Source: Escherichia phage vB_EcoS_fTaEco03
Length of the DNA stretch: 41,972 bases
Sequence record: MT711528.1
Direction: 5' to 3' (one strand)
Numbering within the stretch: the first letter of the stretch is position 1; every line of letters begins with the position of its first letter. The translations under genes and the position numbers were made by a program. The notes below the pieces were generated by a model. It saw only the letters and a program-made list of their open reading frames with translations. It had not been told where the DNA came from and made no database searches. This document shows positions 4,407 through 39,760 of the stretch, piece by piece.

Positions 4407-4421
4407 ACTATTCGAATAGTT
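4406..4421. promoter_or_regulatory. Perfect 16-bp palindrome AACTATTCGAATAGTT abutting -35
   Basis: Self-complementary 16-mer read directly; overlaps first base of TTGACT. Confidence 0.5.
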
Positions 4422-4448
4422 GACTTTTCACCAAAAATGTGCTAAGCT
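4420..4448 (+). promoter_or_regulatory. Sigma70-like promoter (TTGACT - 17 bp - TGcTAAGCT extended -10)
   Basis: -35 TTGACT 4420-4425, -10 TAAGCT 4443-4448 with upstream TG; homologous copy at 34949-34977. Confidence 0.55.
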
Positions 4449-4451
4449 CCA

Positions 4452-4489
4452 CCTGAGCTTGTGAAGTATGAACAAGCGACCGCGGCGCG
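4452..4489 (+). promoter_or_regulatory. Conserved 38-nt promoter-proximal leader element, copy 1
   Basis: CCTGAGCTTGTGAAGTATGAACAAGCGACCGCGGCGCG identical to 34981-35018; contains hairpin GCTTGT-N9-ACAAGC. Confidence 0.6.
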
Positions 4490-4626
4490 GGCAGGTAACG
4501 GAGCGGGACGTAAGTCCTGAGTGTAGTTACGCTGACGCGTTCGGAAGGGCCATACTCTATTGCTTGTGTAAAAAGTAACTGGTTTACTGAGATTACGCCG
4601 TTTCTATGTTTAAATGATAAGGACTA

Positions 4627-7592: not shown

Positions 7593-8207
7593 ATGGCAAA
7601 GACCAAAACAGAGATATTTGCCCTTATCGGCGCTAACCTTCCCGATAACACCACCGGGCTTATCACACCCGAGAAGTTACGCGAAGTAATGACGCAGATG
7701 GCAGATTCGCCTATCTATGCCACTCCCGGGGTGAAAGAGGTAGAAGTTCTCCGTGCCACGTCAACCGTGGCGCAAGCGCCTACCGCAGTAGATACAGCGT
7801 TACAGTTAACTTTCGGGGCTGCGCAGGGAGGCGCGTCTAACCCGGTAATGATTAATGCCGCAGGGCTTGTTACATTCAACACCGCTGGTAACTACGCCGT
7901 TCGCATCAAGTTACAGGCGGGGCGTACTGGCGCTAGTGGGACATCAATCCTGCTATCACGTATTTTAGTAAACGGTGCTCAGTACGGCTCTCCCGCAGCA
8001 ACTAAGCTGGTAAGCGCCGACATAACAATTCCTATTGAGTCCCGCGTTGTTATTAGCCCAACCGCAGGCCAGACGTTTGCCGTTCAGATTATGCGGGATA
8101 GCTCCGGGGCTAACTTTGGCGGCGTATACCCTCAAGCGGCTACCGTAACCGCATGGGGCACAGCGCCTTCTGCGCTACTGGTTATTTCGAGACTGGAGGC
8201 CGCCTGA
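7593..8207 (+). CDS. Structural protein, hypothetical
   Basis: 204 aa ORF, 2-nt gap from previous gene. Confidence 0.45.
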   Translation: MAKTKTEIFALIGANLPDNTTGLITPEKLREVMTQMADSPIYATPGVKEVEVLRATSTVAQAPTAVDTALQLTFGAAQGGASNPVMINAAGLVTFNTAGNYAVRIKLQAGRTGASGTSILLSRILVNGAQYGSPAATKLVSADITIPIESRVVISPTAGQTFAVQIMRDSSGANFGGVYPQAATVTAWGTAPSALLVISRLEAA

Positions 8208-20206: not shown

Positions 20207-23161
20207 ATGTCAAGCGGATGTGGTGACGTTTTAAGCCTGGCGGATTTACAGACCGCCAAGAAGCACCAGATTTTTGAAGCCGAGGTTATCACGGGTAAAT
20301 CCGGCGGAGTAGCCGGGGGCGCAGATATTGATTACGCGACAAACCAGGTTACAGGGCAGACCCAGAAGACACTACCTGCCGTGTTGCGTGACGCTGGTTT
20401 TAAACTGGCAGATTTTGATTTCACGTCAGGCGGTACACTATCCGCTAACGACCGAAACACCGCAGTTTTGTGGCCGTCGTCCTCTGGTGGCGATGGGGAT
20501 TGGTACCATTGGTTGGGCGCTCTGCCAAAAACTATCCCGGCGTCATCTTCTCCGCAGTCCACCGGTGGCGTGGCAGATGGGGCGTGGCAGCCTGTCGGGT
20601 CGGTCATACTGCGGCAGCAAATATCTGATGTAAACGGTGCAATTCTGTACCCAGATTTACATGTGGCGCGATGGAAGGACGAATACGACCCGCGCGCATG
20701 GGGCGCCGTGGGCGACGGCGTAACTGATGATACTCAATCTATTTTTAATGTATTAGCAGCTTCCCACAACAATTGGATTATAGACGGCAGGGGCTTGACT
20801 TATAAAGTTTCCCAATTACCTGACATTAGTAAATTTAAGAATGCTGCATTCGTTTACGAGCGCGTAGCTGGGCAACCGCTTACTTATGTAGCTGATGGCT
20901 TCTTTAACAGCTCACTAACTAAGGTGACGGATACCCCGTTCTACAACGCATGGACGCAGGATAAAACTTTCGTCTACGACAATGTTATTTACGCTCCCTT
21001 TATGGCAGGCGAACGACATGGCGTTCAAAACTTACATGTAGCTTGGGTTCGCTCTGGTGACGACGGGCAGACTTGGTCAATGCCTGAGTGGTTGACCCCA
21101 ATCCATGCTGACTATAATGCTAGTGTTTCCGCGGACAGAGTTAACTACCACTGCATGAGCATGGGTACGTGCGGCAACCGATTATATGCAGTTATAGAAA
21201 CCCGCTACTTATCTAATATGCGGATGAAGAAGGCAGAACTTTGGTCACGCCCAATGCCGTATTTTAGACACCCAACCGGCGGAATAACTATTAGTTCTGG
21301 TTCCACTACTGCTACCATTGTTATAGAAAATCACGGCCTAAAAGCAGGAGATGCGGTTAACTTCTCTAATACATCGGCAACTGGCGTATCGGGTAATATG
21401 ACGGTTGCGTCTATAATTAACCGAAATACGTTCACTGTTACGCTCTCAAGCCCGGCGAGTTCCACCATAAACAATGCGGGTGTTACCTGGAACTTCGCAA
21501 CGCGATTCTGGGACAGCCCGTGGGAAATTACCGAATTGCCTGGGGTAGCATACTCCACTAACGCTGATTTGTGTGTCACGGAGACACATAGTTTTGCGGT
21601 TATAGACGATGTTAACTACACTATCGCTGTCGGCTATCACAACGGCGATGTGTCCCCTAGGCGTCTCGGTGTCTTGTATTTTAGTAACGTGTATGACAAT
21701 CCTGGCGTATTCGTTCGTCGCACTGTCGCTCAGGCATACGCTGATAACGCTTCTGAGCCGTGCGTGAAAAGTTATGGTGGTGTGTTATACCTTACCACAC
21801 GCGGCACATTACCTACTTCCCCTGGCTCTACACTGGCGATGAGCACCGATTCTGGGCAAAACTGGAGCTACTTGCGATTTCCGAACAATGTACATCACTC
21901 CAATCTTCCGTTCGCTAAAGTAGGTGACTATCTCTACATCTTTGGTACAGAACGTGCCTTTGGTGAGTGGGAAGGTGGTGAGCAGGACAGCCGCTATGAA
22001 GGTTCGTATCCGAGGACCTTTATGTGCAAAGTTAATGTGTCGTCCTGGCCTTCATCTTTAGATGATGTTCAGTGGTTTAATATTACCGACCAAATATACC
22101 AGGGTCATATCGTTAACTCTGCTGTCGGCGTCGGCTCGGTCTGTGTTAAAGATGGCTGGTTGTACTATATCTTTGGTGGGGAAGACTTCTTCTCTCCCTG
22201 GAGCATAGGGGATAACAGTGCGAAGTTATGGTACAAACATGATGGGCATCCGGCTGACTTATATAGCTACCGGATAAAGATTGAAGACCACCCGTATGTA
22301 TCCCGTGATTTCAAATACGGAGCAACTCCTAACCGTACACTACCTGTCGCCATGGGGGTAGATGGTGTACGTCATGTAGGGGCACCTTTAACATTTGATA
22401 ATGATGTAAGCGTGTACTCACTGCATGTAACGGGGCTGGAATACGATGGTACACAACAGTCCGCCGTGCGTGCACAGTTTGATGGTGATTACGGGCTGAT
22501 TTCAAAAACAGTCCCCACTAAAAACCCATCGGGTCAAAGACTGATAGTTAGCGGTGGTGATGGTGTATCCAGTTCCGATGGTGCGTTGCTGCAACTGTAC
22601 GGGGCAAACCATGCAACGCCTAACAGGGCTATTATGTATGCGTCAGGAGGCTTCTACTCATACAACAATTTTCTTCCTTACTTAGACTCGCAAGTGTCTT
22701 TAGGTTCGGCAGGTAATAGGTGGACTACGGTGTACGCGACCACCGGTACGATAAATACGTCTGATGGTACACTTAAGACGAATAAAGAGGAAATTGAGGG
22801 ACAACTCCTTACCGCATGGGAAGATATACATGTAATATCTTTTAAGTGGCTTGAAAGCCTAGCAATCAAGGGTGACACTGCAAGGATACACTTCGGTGTG
22901 ATAGCCCAAGATGTGCGAGACATCTTGGTCAACCATGGGCTTATGGAGAAAGATTCTACCGATTGTAAATATGCTTTCTTGTGCTACGACCCAATTGAAG
23001 CTGCGTATGATATTGATGAAGATGGCCAGACTGTACAAGTATCCCCTCCCGGCGGCAGATGGGGGGTTAGGGCGGACCAGATGTTCTTCATAGAGATTGC
23101 CTATCAGCGTAAGAAGATGCGCGAGTTCGAGAAGAGGCTGGCAGCACTAGAAGATAAATAA
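20207..23161 (+). CDS. Tailspike with sialidase-like Asp-boxes and C-terminal intramolecular chaperone (putative endosialidase)
   Basis: 984 aa; Asp-box motifs SGDDGQTW and STDSGQNW; C-terminal ~150 aa resembles self-cleaving chaperone domain with S-D-G-T-L-K motif. Confidence 0.65.
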   Translation: MSSGCGDVLSLADLQTAKKHQIFEAEVITGKSGGVAGGADIDYATNQVTGQTQKTLPAVLRDAGFKLADFDFTSGGTLSANDRNTAVLWPSSSGGDGDWYHWLGALPKTIPASSSPQSTGGVADGAWQPVGSVILRQQISDVNGAILYPDLHVARWKDEYDPRAWGAVGDGVTDDTQSIFNVLAASHNNWIIDGRGLTYKVSQLPDISKFKNAAFVYERVAGQPLTYVADGFFNSSLTKVTDTPFYNAWTQDKTFVYDNVIYAPFMAGERHGVQNLHVAWVRSGDDGQTWSMPEWLTPIHADYNASVSADRVNYHCMSMGTCGNRLYAVIETRYLSNMRMKKAELWSRPMPYFRHPTGGITISSGSTTATIVIENHGLKAGDAVNFSNTSATGVSGNMTVASIINRNTFTVTLSSPASSTINNAGVTWNFATRFWDSPWEITELPGVAYSTNADLCVTETHSFAVIDDVNYTIAVGYHNGDVSPRRLGVLYFSNVYDNPGVFVRRTVAQAYADNASEPCVKSYGGVLYLTTRGTLPTSPGSTLAMSTDSGQNWSYLRFPNNVHHSNLPFAKVGDYLYIFGTERAFGEWEGGEQDSRYEGSYPRTFMCKVNVSSWPSSLDDVQWFNITDQIYQGHIVNSAVGVGSVCVKDGWLYYIFGGEDFFSPWSIGDNSAKLWYKHDGHPADLYSYRIKIEDHPYVSRDFKYGATPNRTLPVAMGVDGVRHVGAPLTFDNDVSVYSLHVTGLEYDGTQQSAVRAQFDGDYGLISKTVPTKNPSGQRLIVSGGDGVSSSDGALLQLYGANHATPNRAIMYASGGFYSYNNFLPYLDSQVSLGSAGNRWTTVYATTGTINTSDGTLKTNKEEIEGQLLTAWEDIHVISFKWLESLAIKGDTARIHFGVIAQDVRDILVNHGLMEKDSTDCKYAFLCYDPIEAAYDIDEDGQTVQVSPPGGRWGVRADQMFFIEIAYQRKKMREFEKRLAALEDK

Positions 23162-23165
23162 AACT

Positions 23166-23187
23166 AAGGCCCCAAACGGGGCCTTTT
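23166..23187. terminator. Bidirectional terminator between tailspike and minus-strand replication operon
   Basis: aaggccccAAACggggcctt followed by T-run; near-identical to hairpin at 10640. Confidence 0.7.
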
Positions 23188-23189
23188 CT

Positions 23190-23327
23190 CTACTCTTCTG
23201 ATAACTTCTCCAGTACAAACGCCAGTTGCGCATTAGCGGCGTCTCTTTGCTGCCGTAGTCGTAGAACCTCCTCCTCAAGTTCCTTGATACGTTTTTGCAA
23301 TGCCGGAATCGGGGCTATGATGTTCAT
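23190..23327 (-). CDS. Small coiled-coil protein (45 aa), hypothetical
   Basis: ATGA overlap with helicase stop; GAGGT RBS; leucine-heptad-like sequence IKELEEEVLRLRQQ. Confidence 0.35.
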   Translation of the reverse strand: MNIIAPIPALQKRIKELEEEVLRLRQQRDAANAQLAFVLEKLSEE

Positions 23328-24748
23328 TTCTTACCTCGTCTCTTCATGTAATTAAGCAACTCTTCCTGGACCGATTTCTTCTCGTCAGTACGCGAGGCAA
23401 CAACCTCGTCCAGCGTGTCTTTAGCAACGATGTGATAGAGGAACACTGGTCGCTCGTGGCCCGCCTGCTTCTGGCGCACCGGGCCTATACGCTCGACAAC
23501 CTGCAAATAGTGCTCAAGGTTCCAGCCTTGCGAAATAAACGCCAGATGATGTCCGCCGTCCTGTAAATTCAAGCCATGGCCGGCTGACGCGGGGTGCACG
23601 CATAGGATTTCGATTTCGCCACGGTTCCACGCTTCCATCTGCTTATTACCTTTCGCACCTTTGGCAAACGCCTGCGCCTGTGGGAATCGCTTAAGGATGC
23701 GCTCCAGTTCGTGCTTGAACTGATAAGCCACAAGTAACGGTGCGCCCTGTAGCTCCTCAACAATCGACTCAAGCGCGTCCAGTTTCGTATCGTGTACTTT
23801 CTCCCAGTCTTTGGTTGCCTCACCGTCTGGCCCCGACACATATACGGCACCGGAGGCAATCTGCAAACACTTTGACGTCTTCGCCGCCGCGTTAGCCGCT
23901 TCAACTTCTCCGCTCTCCAGTTCCGCGAATAACTTCTCCTCCATATCTAGGTACGCCTGACGTGCCTTCTTCGGCAGGTCGATTTCAACCGGCACTATAA
24001 TAGGTGCTTCACACCCAAACCACTCAGCGGCGTCAATAGTGAGACTAATGTCCTTCATCTTCTGGTGGATCTCATTATCTGCACCAGGACGCGCATGATA
24101 CTCCCGCGCCATCGCCGACTTACCTTTCTGTACCGAGTTAAACCATCGGTCGGTGAATGCCGTATATGAGGACCCCAGGCGCTCGCCGGCGTCGATAAAC
24201 CAGTTCTGACCCCACAGGTCCTTGAGGCCGTTTGGTGAGGGCGTGCCGGTAAGGTTTATAAAACGCTTAACCTTTCCAAACGCCACCTTACTGAGCGCCT
24301 TTGCCCGCTTGCTACCACCTGAACGGCTGCGGAATGATTTCAGCTTCGTGCTTTCGTCGGCGACGATAACGGTAAAAGGCCAGTCGTCTTTGCCGTAGTA
24401 GTCAATCAGCCATTCGATAACTTCGTAGTTTGTACACACCACGTTAGCGTCTGATTCCAGCGCCGCGATGCGGCGCTTCTCTGAACCTGTCGCGTCTACG
24501 ACACGCAGACATGGGAAATTCCATTTCTCTTGCTCTGCCGGCCATGTGCCGGACGCAACACGTAAAGGAGCCAGAATTAACACGCGGTCGTCGTCCGTAA
24601 GTTGCCCGTTGCGGAACAGGCGGTTTAAAGTCCACAGGACGCTGCCAGTCTTCCCGGCGCCCATGCTCGCCCAAATATTACAGCGATGGTGCTGCAACAT
24701 GAACGAGGTCATGAGCTTCTGGTATTCGCGCCTTTGAAACTTACTCAT
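23324..24748 (-). CDS. SNF2/DEAD-like superfamily II helicase
   Basis: 474 aa; Walker A GAGKTGS, DExx box VIVADEST, motif III-like LTGTP. Confidence 0.75.
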   Translation of the reverse strand: MSKFQRREYQKLMTSFMLQHHRCNIWASMGAGKTGSVLWTLNRLFRNGQLTDDDRVLILAPLRVASGTWPAEQEKWNFPCLRVVDATGSEKRRIAALESDANVVCTNYEVIEWLIDYYGKDDWPFTVIVADESTKLKSFRSRSGGSKRAKALSKVAFGKVKRFINLTGTPSPNGLKDLWGQNWFIDAGERLGSSYTAFTDRWFNSVQKGKSAMAREYHARPGADNEIHQKMKDISLTIDAAEWFGCEAPIIVPVEIDLPKKARQAYLDMEEKLFAELESGEVEAANAAAKTSKCLQIASGAVYVSGPDGEATKDWEKVHDTKLDALESIVEELQGAPLLVAYQFKHELERILKRFPQAQAFAKGAKGNKQMEAWNRGEIEILCVHPASAGHGLNLQDGGHHLAFISQGWNLEHYLQVVERIGPVRQKQAGHERPVFLYHIVAKDTLDEVVASRTDEKKSVQEELLNYMKRRGKK

Positions 24749-25535
24749 TTACGGCCCCCATAAACGCCTTTATAAATTCGGCGGCTACTTGCGGGACGAT
24801 GGCATTGCCGTAACCGCGCAATCGTCCCACTCTGGCGGGTACCCCATTAGCCAGCGGGAATGTGCTGGGTTCAACTGGCCTGAATTTCCCATCCCGGCAT
24901 CCGAGCCAGTCAGCATCTGACCAGAACCCGTTAGGCGGATTGGCTGTGCCAGAGATGCCTCTGTTTGCAGATTGTGGCCCCCGTTCCTGCCCTGATGGCC
25001 TGCTCCCGCCGAGTTGTTCGCACACGGTGTTGGCCAGTTGCTGCGCTCCGAAGAACAATCGATTCCTTTTGTGCGGTGCGCCGACGCTACAAGCTGGGAG
25101 TACGGCAAACCCGACGGCGTAGTCTTCTCTTTCCAGGTGAGTTTGTAAATCGCACATCCACGATTTTGCAATTGCTGCCGCAACCTGCTCCCCAAAGATA
25201 ACTGGAGGGCGGCACTCGCTGATGAGGTCGAGGAACACAGGTGCGAGGTGTCTCTGGTCGAACTGTCCGAGTTGCTTTCCTGCCGTGCTAAACGGTTGGC
25301 AAGGCGGGCTTCCCGTCCAGAGAGGCGCATCTTCCGGAACTCCCGAAAGTCTGAGCGCGAGAGGCCAGCCGCCGATACCAGCGAAAAAATGACACTGGGT
25401 GAACCCGTCAAGGTCTTCTGGTCTAACTTCGGTAATGCTTCTTTCATCTACAACTCCAAAAGGTATGTGACCCTGTTTTATTAATTCACGCAGCCACGCG
25501 GCTGCGCCTTTATCCCATTCGTTGTAATAGTTCAT
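24741..25535 (-). CDS. DNA (cytosine-5) methyltransferase, short form
   Basis: 264 aa; motif I FAGIGG, motif IV PPCQPFS, motif VIII KRNRLFF, motif X GNAIVP. Confidence 0.7.
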
Positions 25536-31163: not shown

Positions 31164-31634
31164 TTATTCTTCTTCGAAATACTTGTTCTTGATTGCTGTC
31201 AGGCGCTCCAGATACTCAGCCAGGTCTTCGTCTTTAATCGCTGCAATCTTCATCTTCTTACCGGTAAACTCTTCCAGCAGTTCGTCAGAATCGTCGCACG
31301 CGGCATCGCTTGGGCCTTCGTTAATCGCATCGTCGATAGCCTGAATCTGGTCGCGCAGAGACTGGTAATCGACTTCTTCTTTCTCTTCTTCCGGCTCTGG
31401 CGTTGGCTCCTCTACTTTAGCTTTACGCGGCTTGCGCTTCGGCTTCTCTTCTTCTGCTGGTTTAGTGTCAATGGTGTCTTCACCTTCTACCGGGATTTCT
31501 TTCGTTACTTCTTTCACAACAGTAGGCTCTATTGTTGCAGTTTTGGCAACGACAACTTGTTTCGCACTGTTTGCAGCAATCAGTTCGTGGGCGACTACGA
31601 AACGTTCCAGTAATACCAAGAATTTCTCTAACAT
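31164..31634 (-). CDS. Highly acidic early protein, hypothetical
   Basis: 156 aa, first gene after promoter 31666-31694; long E/D-rich tracts (EEPTPEPEEEKEEVD, DDSDELLEE). Confidence 0.5.
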   Translation of the reverse strand: MLEKFLVLLERFVVAHELIAANSAKQVVVAKTATIEPTVVKEVTKEIPVEGEDTIDTKPAEEEKPKRKPRKAKVEEPTPEPEEEKEEVDYQSLRDQIQAIDDAINEGPSDAACDDSDELLEEFTGKKMKIAAIKDEDLAEYLERLTAIKNKYFEEE

Positions 31635-34948: not shown

Positions 34949-34977
34949 TTGACTTTTACTAAGAAATATGGTAAGCT
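34949..34977 (+). promoter_or_regulatory. Sigma70-like promoter (TTGACT - 17 - TGgTAAGCT), twin of 4420-4448
   Basis: Same -35, spacer length and extended -10 as promoter at 4420. Confidence 0.55.
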
Positions 34978-34980
34978 CAG

Positions 34981-35018
34981 CCTGAGCTTGTGAAGTATGA
35001 ACAAGCGACCGCGGCGCG
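34981..35018 (+). promoter_or_regulatory. Conserved 38-nt promoter-proximal leader element, copy 2
   Basis: Identical 38-mer to 4452-4489; downstream blocks TCTATTG and TTACTGA also shared. Confidence 0.6.
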
Positions 35019-35163
35019 CGGCAGGCGAAACGAGCACGTGTAACGTGTGGAGTGAGGCTCGCTGGCGCGTTTGGGAGGCCCAAAGTCTATTGTAATTCCC
35101 GCCTAATTATCTAAGTTACTGATTTGCCGTAGGTTAGAACCGCCAGCTCACTCACTCACTCTT

Positions 35164-36598: not shown

Positions 36599-36736
36599 AT
36601 GGGCTGGTACGGTAGCTGGACTTTAGGCGAACTGGTAGACGCTTACGAAATAATTAGTAGCACTTCGGTGTGTGACGGCGACACTAAATCGCTGCTAGTC
36701 GGGGTGGATGCGAAAAGGGGTGAAGCTGATGAGTAA
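36599..36736 (+). CDS. Small protein (45 aa), hypothetical
   Basis: GAGAGGAG RBS; overlaps start of next gene. Confidence 0.3.
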   Translation: MGWYGSWTLGELVDAYEIISSTSVCDGDTKSLLVGVDAKRGEADE

Positions 36737-37274
36737 CAAAAACGAAATATTCGAGTACCTGATCGACCAGCTACGGCAGCAGGTAAATAACAGCCGGAGC
36801 GAAGACCTGGCTCATGAGGTGCAGTCACTTAAGAATCAGTTACGTGATGCTTCGGTGCAGATTAAGGAGTTGCGGGAAGACAACATTAAGAAATCTGAGC
36901 ACATATCGCACCTGACAGGGCAAGTTAAGGAGTTGCATCTGGCATTGGTCGAGGCTACTGGTGACGTGGAGGCATACAAACTTATCCGCAAAGGTGCGTA
37001 CGGTTCGGAGCAATCTGGTTGCCGAAAAGAAGATACGCAGGAATGTGACCACAATTGGATTATCGCTCCAGGATTGTTTATTGCCGAAGGCCACAAGGAC
37101 AACGTGCCCGGTAGCCGGTTTTGCTGCGAATGCGGCAAGCGTGAGTGGGGCGGACTTGAGTATGGGGCAACAGCCTGTACACAGGAGTGCAAACACAGTT
37201 TCTATTATGTAATAACAGATGGCTCCGCGCCGTTCGGTACGAAAGTATGTAAAACGTGCGGGGAATACTTCTGA
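36729..37274 (+). CDS. Coiled-coil protein with C-terminal cysteine-rich (zinc-ribbon-like) region
   Basis: Start refined to ATG 36729; C-terminus has CCECGK ... CTQEC ... CKTCG. Confidence 0.5.
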   Translation: MSNKNEIFEYLIDQLRQQVNNSRSEDLAHEVQSLKNQLRDASVQIKELREDNIKKSEHISHLTGQVKELHLALVEATGDVEAYKLIRKGAYGSEQSGCRKEDTQECDHNWIIAPGLFIAEGHKDNVPGSRFCCECGKREWGGLEYGATACTQECKHSFYYVITDGSAPFGTKVCKTCGEYF

Positions 37275-37479: not shown

Positions 37480-37686
37480 ATGGTACAGAGATATGATTTA
37501 ACAGAAGACTGCGTGAGTGGCACGGTAGATATAACGCCTGTCCCGGACTCGCATGAAGGGCGTTATGTGGCCTACGAAGATTACGCGAAACTGGAGCGCA
37601 AACTGCGTGAGCTTGCTAAGCAGGTAGTAAACAGTCCGTGCGACTGGAAGACGGATGAATTGGCGCGCGAGATTCTCGGAATATGA
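37480..37686 (+). CDS. Hypothetical protein (68 aa)
   Basis: ATG 37480; ATGA overlap with next gene. Confidence 0.4.
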   Translation: MVQRYDLTEDCVSGTVDITPVPDSHEGRYVAYEDYAKLERKLRELAKQVVNSPCDWKTDELAREILGI

Positions 37687-39571: not shown

Positions 39572-39760
39572 ATGATGACTAAGATTAAGCATACCGATAA
39601 CTGGGGTGATTTCATGGAGATAGAGAAATGCCGTGACGGGACATTACTTATAATTTGTACAGACGGAGATACCGACGAATCAGTTAGTGTTAACGTGAGT
39701 ATGGATGATTTTATGATTATTGTTGAGCAAGTGGCGGCTTTTTACGGAGATGATAAATGA
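39572..39760 (+). CDS. Hypothetical protein (62 aa)
   Basis: ORF with GGAG-containing RBS; ATGA overlap downstream. Confidence 0.45.
   Translation: MMTKIKHTDNWGDFMEIEKCRDGTLLIICTDGDTDESVSVNVSMDDFMIIVEQVAAFYGDDK

Follow-up and report, generated by a model that had tools for sequence, protein, structure and literature searches.

Phage endosialidases (endo-N-acetylneuraminidases, EC 3.2.1.129) form family GH58 of the CAZy classification. The enzyme of phage 63D is listed as a characterized 108-kDa endo-N-acetylneuraminidase, with reference to Machida et al. 2000, and has been reported as a tetramer (PMC5380687). Recombinant ORF40 of phage JSSK01, which shares 97.1% identity with the tailspike analyzed here, is found at the tail tip and removes the capsule of K1 cells (PMC11641727), and ULINTec2, whose spike is 99.3% identical, is a K1-dependent phage (PMC8541614). 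A Ser/Lys catalytic dyad in the C-terminal chaperone domain (S911/K916 in endoNF, the enzyme of phage K1F) has also been described (PMC3742443). The enzyme family, its structure, the self-cleaving chaperone, and the 63D/K1G sequence type are already known from the literature and databases, and the tailspike presented here is not a novel finding, since a review already lists the 63D-type enzyme as a characterized endosialidase.

The locus compared with these systems lies in the complete Kagunavirus genome of Escherichia phage vB_EcoS_fTaEco03 (MT711528.1; 41,972 nucleotides), which was analyzed as a whole and is referred to as the window. The gene almost certainly encodes a polysialic-acid-degrading tailspike with which a Kagunavirus that depends on the K1 capsule (a siphophage of the K1G/K1H/63D type) destroys its receptor.

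The tailspike gene, its surroundings, and its close relatives

The open reading frame that a preceding sequence-only reading had placed at 20207..23161 (+) is real. It runs from an ATG to a stop codon, which is included in these coordinates, and encodes a tailspike endosialidase precursor of 984 aa with a computed mass of 108.0 kDa. A ribosome-binding site (AAGAGGA) is located 7 nt 5′ of the start, and the frame matches the phrog_1171 family “tail spike protein” with an E-value of 7e-292. The window is collinear with the genome of fTaEco01 over its full length (98–99% identity), and the gene order is the same in both, with a J-like tail-tip gene followed by the tailspike gene and then by a convergent helicase gene. 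The GC-rich hairpin AAGGCCCC-AAAC-GGGGCCTT (23166..23185, given without strand), which is marked by a terminator-like site on the minus strand and by the sequence itself, sits 3′ of the tailspike stop codon between the tailspike gene and the convergent, leftward replication genes. It is likely a two-way terminator, and the annotation of phage Schulenburg has a bidirectional terminator at the equivalent location. Rfam gave no match anywhere in the window, and no tRNA genes were found in it.

Two further features of the window are more interesting than the tailspike. A C5 DNA-methyltransferase gene at 24741-25535 (-) harbors a conserved second protein, termed frame B, in its +1 frame. A Pfam scan of 37 aligned members of this protein yielded nothing meaningful (one member matched Cytochrom_C1 with an E-value of 0.002), the frame-B protein of the window itself had no match in Pfam or NCBIfam or in a profile search of the PDB, and its AlphaFold model is unusable (pLDDT 49). 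Literature searches on Mte8 and on cytosine methyltransferases of phages with overlapping frames yielded no pertinent paper. The second feature is a promoter-plus-leader element that is present in two ultra-conserved copies.

At the DNA level, the tailspike gene is 99.9% identical to TE1_028 of fTaEco01, which is annotated as “tailspike endosialidase,” and 98.3%, 97.5%, and 96.0% identical to the genes of K1G, K1H, and 63D, respectively, three phages with isolation hosts of serotype O18:K1:H7. At least 95% protein identity is reached in 21 phage records. The spikes of vB_EcoS_fTaEco01, fKuEco01, ULINTec2, K1G, and K1H share 98.1–99.7% protein identity with the window tailspike; in these five phages and in JSSK01 the gene takes the same genomic position as in the window, and their hosts are K1-encapsulated. 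The fTaEco01 spike differs by S306R and V787A, and its Glu517 codon contains an ambiguous base; a literature search on phage fTaEco01 found nothing. The exact tailspike protein is absent from a public protein collection of 15 billion sequences, and by its sequence the window tailspike represents a new allele that is set apart from that of fTaEco01 by two defined residues. Since this collection lacks the exact sequence, the activity of the allele is expected from homologs that are 97–99.7% identical.

Domain layout and the modular N-terminus

All four endosialidase domains of Pfam are present in the precursor together with Peptidase_S74, each far above the curated cut-offs, so that the proposed profile search for sialidase/endo-N and peptidase S74 domains found both kinds. 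The protein starts with a virion-attachment (adaptor) module (aa 1–132, 20207..20602, +) that contains a Tail_spike_N match at aa 97–131 (PF18668, E 1.3e-13). It is followed by the endosialidase N-terminal extension End_N_terminal (aa 167–233, 20705..20905, +; PF12218, E 3.6e-37). The catalytic domain is a six-bladed β-propeller (aa 234–693, 20906..22285, +) that matches End_beta_propel over 367 of the 367 profile positions (PF12217, E 1.1e-222) and is interrupted by a lectin-like β-barrel insertion (aa 351–433, 21257-21505, +; End_beta_barrel, PF12195, E 1.8e-41). A stalk of the End_tail_spike type (aa 694–851, 22286..22759, +; PF12219, E 5.8e-74) leads to the C-terminal intramolecular chaperone/autoprotease (aa 852–984, 22760..23158, +, 15.2 kDa; Peptidase_S74, PF13884, E 7.8e-13).

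The structural matches in the PDB agree with this layout. The alignments begin at aa 166 and cover aa 166–851, with E = 0 for 4HIZ, whose chain sequence is that of gp143 from phage phi92 (endoN92), and E-values of about 1e-229 for 1V0E/3GVL (endoNF of K1F; 1.4e-229 for 1V0E). Solved structures at 72–83% identity span aa 166–851, and the C-terminal domain is covered by an endoNF structure, 3GW6 (E 2e-57 to 2e-59), and also matches the chaperone-bearing fibers 7Y5S, 3GUD, and 4UW8. The sequence-only reading had anticipated a chaperone/peptidase domain in the last ~150 aa, and the Peptidase_S74 and 3GW6 matches support the domain, which at 133 aa is slightly smaller than proposed.

The N-terminus has relatives of its own. 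Residues 1–141 share 67% aa identity with the spike of phage Schulenburg, the remainder of which is unrelated, and in Kagunaviruses with other spike bodies the DNA matches to the tailspike gene reach only nt 1–393 or less. The module of aa 1–132 is the only part that is common to the tailspike and to Kagunavirus spikes with a different catalytic body. Judged by these alignments, the tailspike fits the modular type of the Kagunaviruses (Guernseyvirinae), in which a common attachment module is followed by an exchangeable catalytic body. The junction near aa 132 is a clean case of tailspike cassette exchange, a principle that is already known.

Active site and predicted self-cleavage

Two Asp-boxes, SGDDGQTW (aa 283–290, 21053-21076, +) and STDSGQNW (aa 546–553, 21842-21865, +), are found with the expression S.D.G..W, as had been noticed before, and the propeller that they had suggested is supported by the PF12217, 4HIZ, and 1V0E/3GVL matches. 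In the 1V0E alignment, both boxes coincide with motifs of endoNF (SGDDGQTW and SRDIGQTW). The same alignment places E517 (21755-21757), R532 (21800-21802), and R583 (21953-21955; all +) opposite E581, R596, and R647 of endoNF. Glu581, Arg596, and Arg647 are the catalytic residues of endoNF. In the stalk, the residue aligned to Q853 of endoNF is a leucine in the tailspike and likewise in phi92. Q853 is part of the polysialic-acid binding site in the endoNF stalk, and secondary binding by the tailspike may differ from that of endoNF because of this leucine.

The candidate cleavage motif NTSDGTLK is present as well, with its SDxxxK core SDGTLK at aa 852–857 (22760-22777, +). The dyad for self-cleavage, S852 (22760-22762, +) and K857 (22775-22777, +), is conserved in endoNF and aligns to position 911, an alanine in the 3GW6 chain, and to K916. 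The alanine presumably reflects an S911A mutant. The 4HIZ chain terminates at the residue aligned to T851 of the tailspike, and in the GenBank record of phi92 the mature protein ends with ...TGTINT and the C-terminal domain starts with SDGTLK, which gives the homologous site TINT|SDGTLK. By analogy, the tailspike is predicted to mature at T851|S852, with computed masses of 92.8 and 15.2 kDa for the two products.

Proposed function and comparison with known endosialidases

The earlier proposal of a depolymerase with the K1 capsule as receptor is borne out by the relatives of the tailspike, which include the annotated endosialidase of fTaEco01, the genes of K1G, K1H, and 63D (96–98%), a 97%-identical recombinant protein that removes the K1 capsule, and a K1-dependent phage with a 99.3%-identical spike (PMC11641727, PMC8541614). 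The direct evidence consists of the domain content, the conservation of motifs and catalytic residues, and near-identity to characterized enzymes, and nothing in the sequence speaks against a K1 endosialidase.

The main or an additional substrate could instead be another polysialic acid, for example the K92 capsule with its alternating α-2,8/α-2,9 linkages, and the host range would then extend beyond K1. Beyond the Kagunavirus group, endoN92 has the nearest catalytic domain (83% identity in the propeller), and the phi92 record annotates this enzyme as degrading both α-2,8 and α-2,8/α-2,9 polymers. This substrate is nevertheless unlikely, as all close relatives either were obtained on K1 strains or have been called K1-specific, and among four narrow-spectrum (K1-dependent) phages that were characterized closely, ULINTec2 had the narrowest spectrum (PMC8541614). 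Since the catalytic body is closer to endoN92 than to endoNF, there is a small chance that spikes of the 63D/K1G type also cleave the K92 capsule; no K92 test of such an enzyme was found in the literature consulted. If true, K92 cleavage would mean a second, unrecognized host serotype for K1G/63D-type siphophages.

It is very improbable that the spike binds polysialic acid as a lectin-like adhesin but is catalytically dead and no depolymerase. Binding-competent, inactive endosialidase variants do exist and serve as detection reagents (PMC5380687), and the activity of the exact window allele is drawn from homologs, but the glutamate and both arginines of the active site are conserved, and the tailspike shares 97–99.7% identity with the spikes of productive phages that depend on K1 and with a capsule-removing recombinant enzyme. 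Although short motifs such as the Asp-box and SDxxxK can arise randomly, chance matches in an unrelated tail fiber are ruled out by the exactly two Asp-boxes seen against about 0.015 expected at the composition of the tailspike and by full-length domain and structure matches with E-values down to 0.

As a K1 endosialidase, the 108 kDa precursor would trimerize with the aid of its own C-terminal chaperone domain. After folding, the Ser852/Lys857 dyad would cut the chain between T851 and S852, freeing a 15-kDa fragment and leaving a mature spike of 93 kDa that would be docked at the tail tip by its N-terminal 132 residues. [quoted passage not shown] For the window allele, this activity is expected by analogy, as hydrolysis of α-2,8 polysialic acid is reported for the 97%-identical 63D enzyme and JSSK01 ORF40 removes the capsule. 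The assignment confirms that the genome belongs to a phage specific for the K1 capsule. This is of use in predicting hosts, in selecting phages for therapy, or in employing the enzyme as a polysialic-acid reagent.

K1F endoNF (1V0E, 3GVL, 3GW6) has the fold and domain order of the tailspike, and the two Asp-boxes, the E/R/R residues of the active site, and the Ser/Lys autocleavage dyad are conserved between them. It is more distant in sequence, an overall identity of 47.6% to K1F having been reported for JSSK01 (a 97% relative of the tailspike), and it differs by a T7-type N-terminal adaptor and by a longer insertion within the C-terminal domain. The phi92 endoN92 (gp143, 4HIZ) is homologous to the tailspike from aa 133 to the end (identity of 83% for the propeller, 72% for the stalk, and 71% for the C-terminal domain), and its maturation motif TINT|SDGTLK is identical. 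As a myovirus, phi92 has another kind of baseplate, and its N-terminal attachment module is therefore unrelated; aa 1–132 of the tailspike have no counterpart in gp143. The hosts of phi92 include K92 as well as K1. The tetramer reported for the 63D enzyme does not agree with the trimer that 4HIZ and 3GW6 lead one to expect and is hard to reconcile with the trimeric relatives. The 63D enzyme itself (AB015437/BAA32990) resembles the tailspike in length (984 aa), domain order, and precursor mass (108 kDa) at 97.2% protein identity, and the 28 substitutions between the two are scattered, with none at E517, R532, R583, S852, or K857.

Tailspike gene, domain architecture and catalytic residues

The tailspike is encoded on the + strand by an uninterrupted ORF (20207-23161) of 984 codons from ATG to stop, with an AAGAGGA ribosome-binding site 7 nt upstream of the ATG. 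Downstream of the stop, a GC-rich hairpin (AAGGCCCC-AAAC-GGGGCCTT, 23166-23185) lies between the gene and the replication genes, which run leftward toward it. A 45-aa ORF (23190-23327, − strand), hypothetical in the fTaEco01 annotation, is located between this likely terminator hairpin and the helicase gene and shows weak coiled-coil-type Pfam matches (DUF1192, ZapB-like).

A sequence-only reading had predicted the gene product to be a K1-capsule depolymerase, and its ORF coordinates and motifs are all found as written. In a regex scan the Asp-box pattern occurs exactly twice, as SGDDGQTW (aa 283-290) and as STDSGQNW (aa 546-553), against ~0.015 chance occurrences expected, and a single SDxxxK motif is present (SDGTLK, aa 852-857). 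The C-terminal domain, which had been estimated at ~150 aa, comprises 133 aa. Six Pfam domains score far above their curated cut-offs: Tail_spike_N (aa 97-131, E 1.3e-13), End_N_terminal (aa 167-233, E 3.6e-37), End_beta_propel (aa 234-693, E 1.1e-222), End_beta_barrel, which is inserted in the propeller (aa 351-433, E 1.8e-41), End_tail_spike (aa 694-851, E 5.8e-74), and Peptidase_S74 (aa 852-912, E 7.8e-13). In a search of solved structures, aa 166-851 match 4HIZ, a chain with the sequence of phi92 gp143 (endoN92), with E = 0, and the endosialidase of phage K1F (endoNF; 1V0E, 3GVL, 3GVJ, 3GVK) with ~1e-229. For the C-terminus, the match is to 3GW6, the structure of the endoNF chaperone domain (E 2e-57 to 2e-59). 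These matches support the predicted sialidase β-propeller and the predicted chaperone/peptidase domain, and all features that define phage endosialidases and S74 chaperone domains are present as far as they can be examined in silico.

E517, R532, and R583 are the conserved counterparts of endoNF E581, R596, and R647, the catalytic residues of that enzyme; the residue offset was checked by counting along the 1V0E alignment. The counterpart of endoNF Q853, presumably part of a secondary polysialic-acid binding site, is a leucine in the stalk of the tailspike, as it is in phi92. In the 3GW6 alignment, S852 aligns to position 911 and K857 to K916. Position 911 is an alanine in the 3GW6 chain, presumably reflecting an S911A mutant. 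In phage endosialidases, the Ser/Lys pair forms the catalytic dyad for self-cleavage (PMC3742443). The GenBank annotation of phi92 ends the mature spike at ...TGTINT and starts the released C-terminal domain at SDGTLK. The maturation-site sequence is identical in both proteins, and the last residue of the 4HIZ chain corresponds to the last of the mature spike. The alignment and the phi92 record both support the candidate cleavage motif. Cleavage at this site would convert the 108.0-kDa precursor into predicted products of 92.8 kDa (aa 1-851) and 15.2 kDa (aa 852-984).

Methyltransferase locus and other features of the genome

The window is collinear with fTaEco01 throughout (98-99% identity) and begins at the same terminase codon, which identifies it as a complete Kagunavirus (Guernseyvirinae) genome. 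A 452-bp stretch (7667-8118) in the head-tail connector region is missing from fTaEco01. It completes a 204-aa ORF (7593-8207, +) with an end-to-end match to phrog_3614 (unknown function). Two small ORFs take the place of this ORF in fTaEco01, which therefore probably carries a deletion. The largest of the further stretches without fTaEco01 counterpart is 36872-37273, in an ORF of 188 aa whose function is unknown (36708-37274, +, phrog_6094); the others are 39576-39747 and the short gaps 24932-25001, 31505-31556, and 37495-37571.

The C5 DNA-methyltransferase gene (frame A, 24741-25535, −, 264 aa) matches Pfam DNA_methylase, phrog_363, and M.HhaI. Wholly within it, the +1 frame harbors a 220-aa ORF (frame B, 24785-25447, −) that starts with its own GGAG-N6-ATG directly after an in-frame stop. 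Frame B matches phrog_1008 (E 1.6e-52), and its family comprises 5569 protein clusters; among the 120 clusters listed, no Pfam domain is present. A Pfam scan of 37 aligned members gave nothing meaningful, the single match being Cytochrom_C1 in one member (E 0.002). Neither a PDB profile search nor NCBIfam scans of two members gave a match. Some GenBank records annotate both ORFs, with frame B named, for example, "putative Mte8-like protein". A literature search found no paper on frame B or the dual-frame locus.

The conservation of frame B was assessed in 80 viral contigs picked by frame-A homology only (44-74% identity), disregarding frame B; a frame-A ORF was identifiable in 76 of them. The +1 frame holds a stop-free run of at least 60% of the frame-A length in 75 of the 76 homologues, the +2 frame in none, and the +1 run is longer than in all 300 codon shuffles in 37. 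Selection was measured as third-position identity in frame A wherever two sequences encode the same amino acid. This identity is 0.40-0.42 in the codons that code in frame A only (8-36 and 257-271) and 0.43 in codons 37-90, and it rises to 0.71 in codons 131-160 and 0.70 in codons 211-256. The two raised stretches coincide exactly with the conserved motifs of frame B, ...YxLTWKxxxTPSG... and a second, nearly invariant one, a pattern characteristic of genuine dual coding for these segments. From these sequence comparisons, the locus seems to be a dual-coding gene that is deeply conserved.

WPTP-type modules are gained and lost in frame B between phages while frame A stays open through them. In one distantly related contig (L076; frame A 249-2018, frame B 433-1989), frame B carries an insertion of ~190 aa (CxxC...CxxC...LDRIDP...) between methyltransferase motifs VI and VIII, which is read as HNH-like. 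Frame A is open throughout the insertion, suggesting translation of frame B over its full length. The AlphaFold model of frame B is unusable (pLDDT 49). Its product may be a separate protein or may be joined to frame A by frameshifting.

A non-coding element is present in two copies (4420-4565 and 34949-35095, both +) that are 81% identical to each other. Both contain a promoter-like site (TTGACT-N17-TAAGCT) followed by a conserved leader of ~110 nt, and both can adopt a shared predicted fold in whose apical hairpin 3 or 4 base pairs carry compensatory changes, with both sides altered. Across 180 records of Escherichia and Salmonella phages, 177 carry copy 1 at an identity of 95% or more, mostly unannotated, a conservation far above that of the genomes overall. 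The element has no Rfam match; as a tentative idea, it could be a promoter-proximal regulatory RNA, perhaps an antiterminator.

Relatives, predicted maturation and mosaic structure of the spike

As a finding, the tailspike is already known. Its relatives are the tailspike endosialidases of fTaEco01 (DNA 99.9%, protein 99.7%) and fKuEco01 (99.7%, 99.4%), the endo-N-acetylneuraminidase of ULINTec2 (99.6%, 99.3%), the tailspike 63D sialidases of K1G (98.3%, 98.5%) and K1H (97.5%, 98.1%), and the endo-N-acetylneuraminidase of 63D (AB015437, "Phage #D"; 96.0%, 97.2%). The exact allele was not found in the protein collection, and only two defined residues differ from the nearest deposited sequence. 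The catalytic Glu517 codon of fTaEco01 (MT711527.1, 21316-21318, aligned to 21755-21757 of the window) contains an ambiguous base and is translated as X, a flaw in the deposited record with no biological meaning.

Recombinant ORF40 of JSSK01, which is 97.1% identical to the tailspike, has been localized to the tail tip; it strips a K1 strain of its capsule and shows K1-specific agglutination (PMC11641727). ULINTec2 depends on K1 and infects a narrow range of K1 hosts (PMC8541614). Near-identity to both spikes supports the K1 capsule as receptor, and the sequence-only interpretation is supported in full.

The domain content, the conserved catalytic and cleavage residues, and the near-identity to tested enzymes are direct observations. 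By analogy to homologues, the chaperone domain would drive folding of the stalk trimer, and the folded trimer would place S852 and K857 for the cut at T851/S852, upon which the 15-kDa C-terminal domain would leave. The mature spike, held by its N-terminal module, would then hydrolyze α-2,8 polysialic acid, giving the virion access to the outer membrane. Cleavage of the K92 polymer, as annotated for the nearest catalytic relative (phi92), is unlikely for this enzyme type; the literature yielded no test of it.

The 63D enzyme (108 kDa) is listed among the characterized endo-N-acetylneuraminidases (PMC5380687). It differs from the tailspike by 28 substitutions, none at catalytic or cleavage residues. 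It has been reported as a tetramer (PMC5380687), which conflicts with its trimeric relatives. Homology to phi92 gp143 starts at aa 133, with 52% identity in the neck, 74% in the N-terminal extension, 83% in the propeller, 72% in the stalk, and 71% in the C-terminal domain. Kagunaviruses with other tailspike bodies have at most the first 393 nt in common with the gene; the spike of Schulenburg shares 67% identity across aa 1-141, beyond which the two proteins are unrelated. Based on these two boundaries, the spike is a mosaic of a genus-specific attachment module (aa 1-132) and an endosialidase cassette. The cassette is also found in myophages (phi92, phAPEC8 group), podophages, and the CUS-3 prophage, and cassette exchange of this sort is a known principle (PMC5380687).
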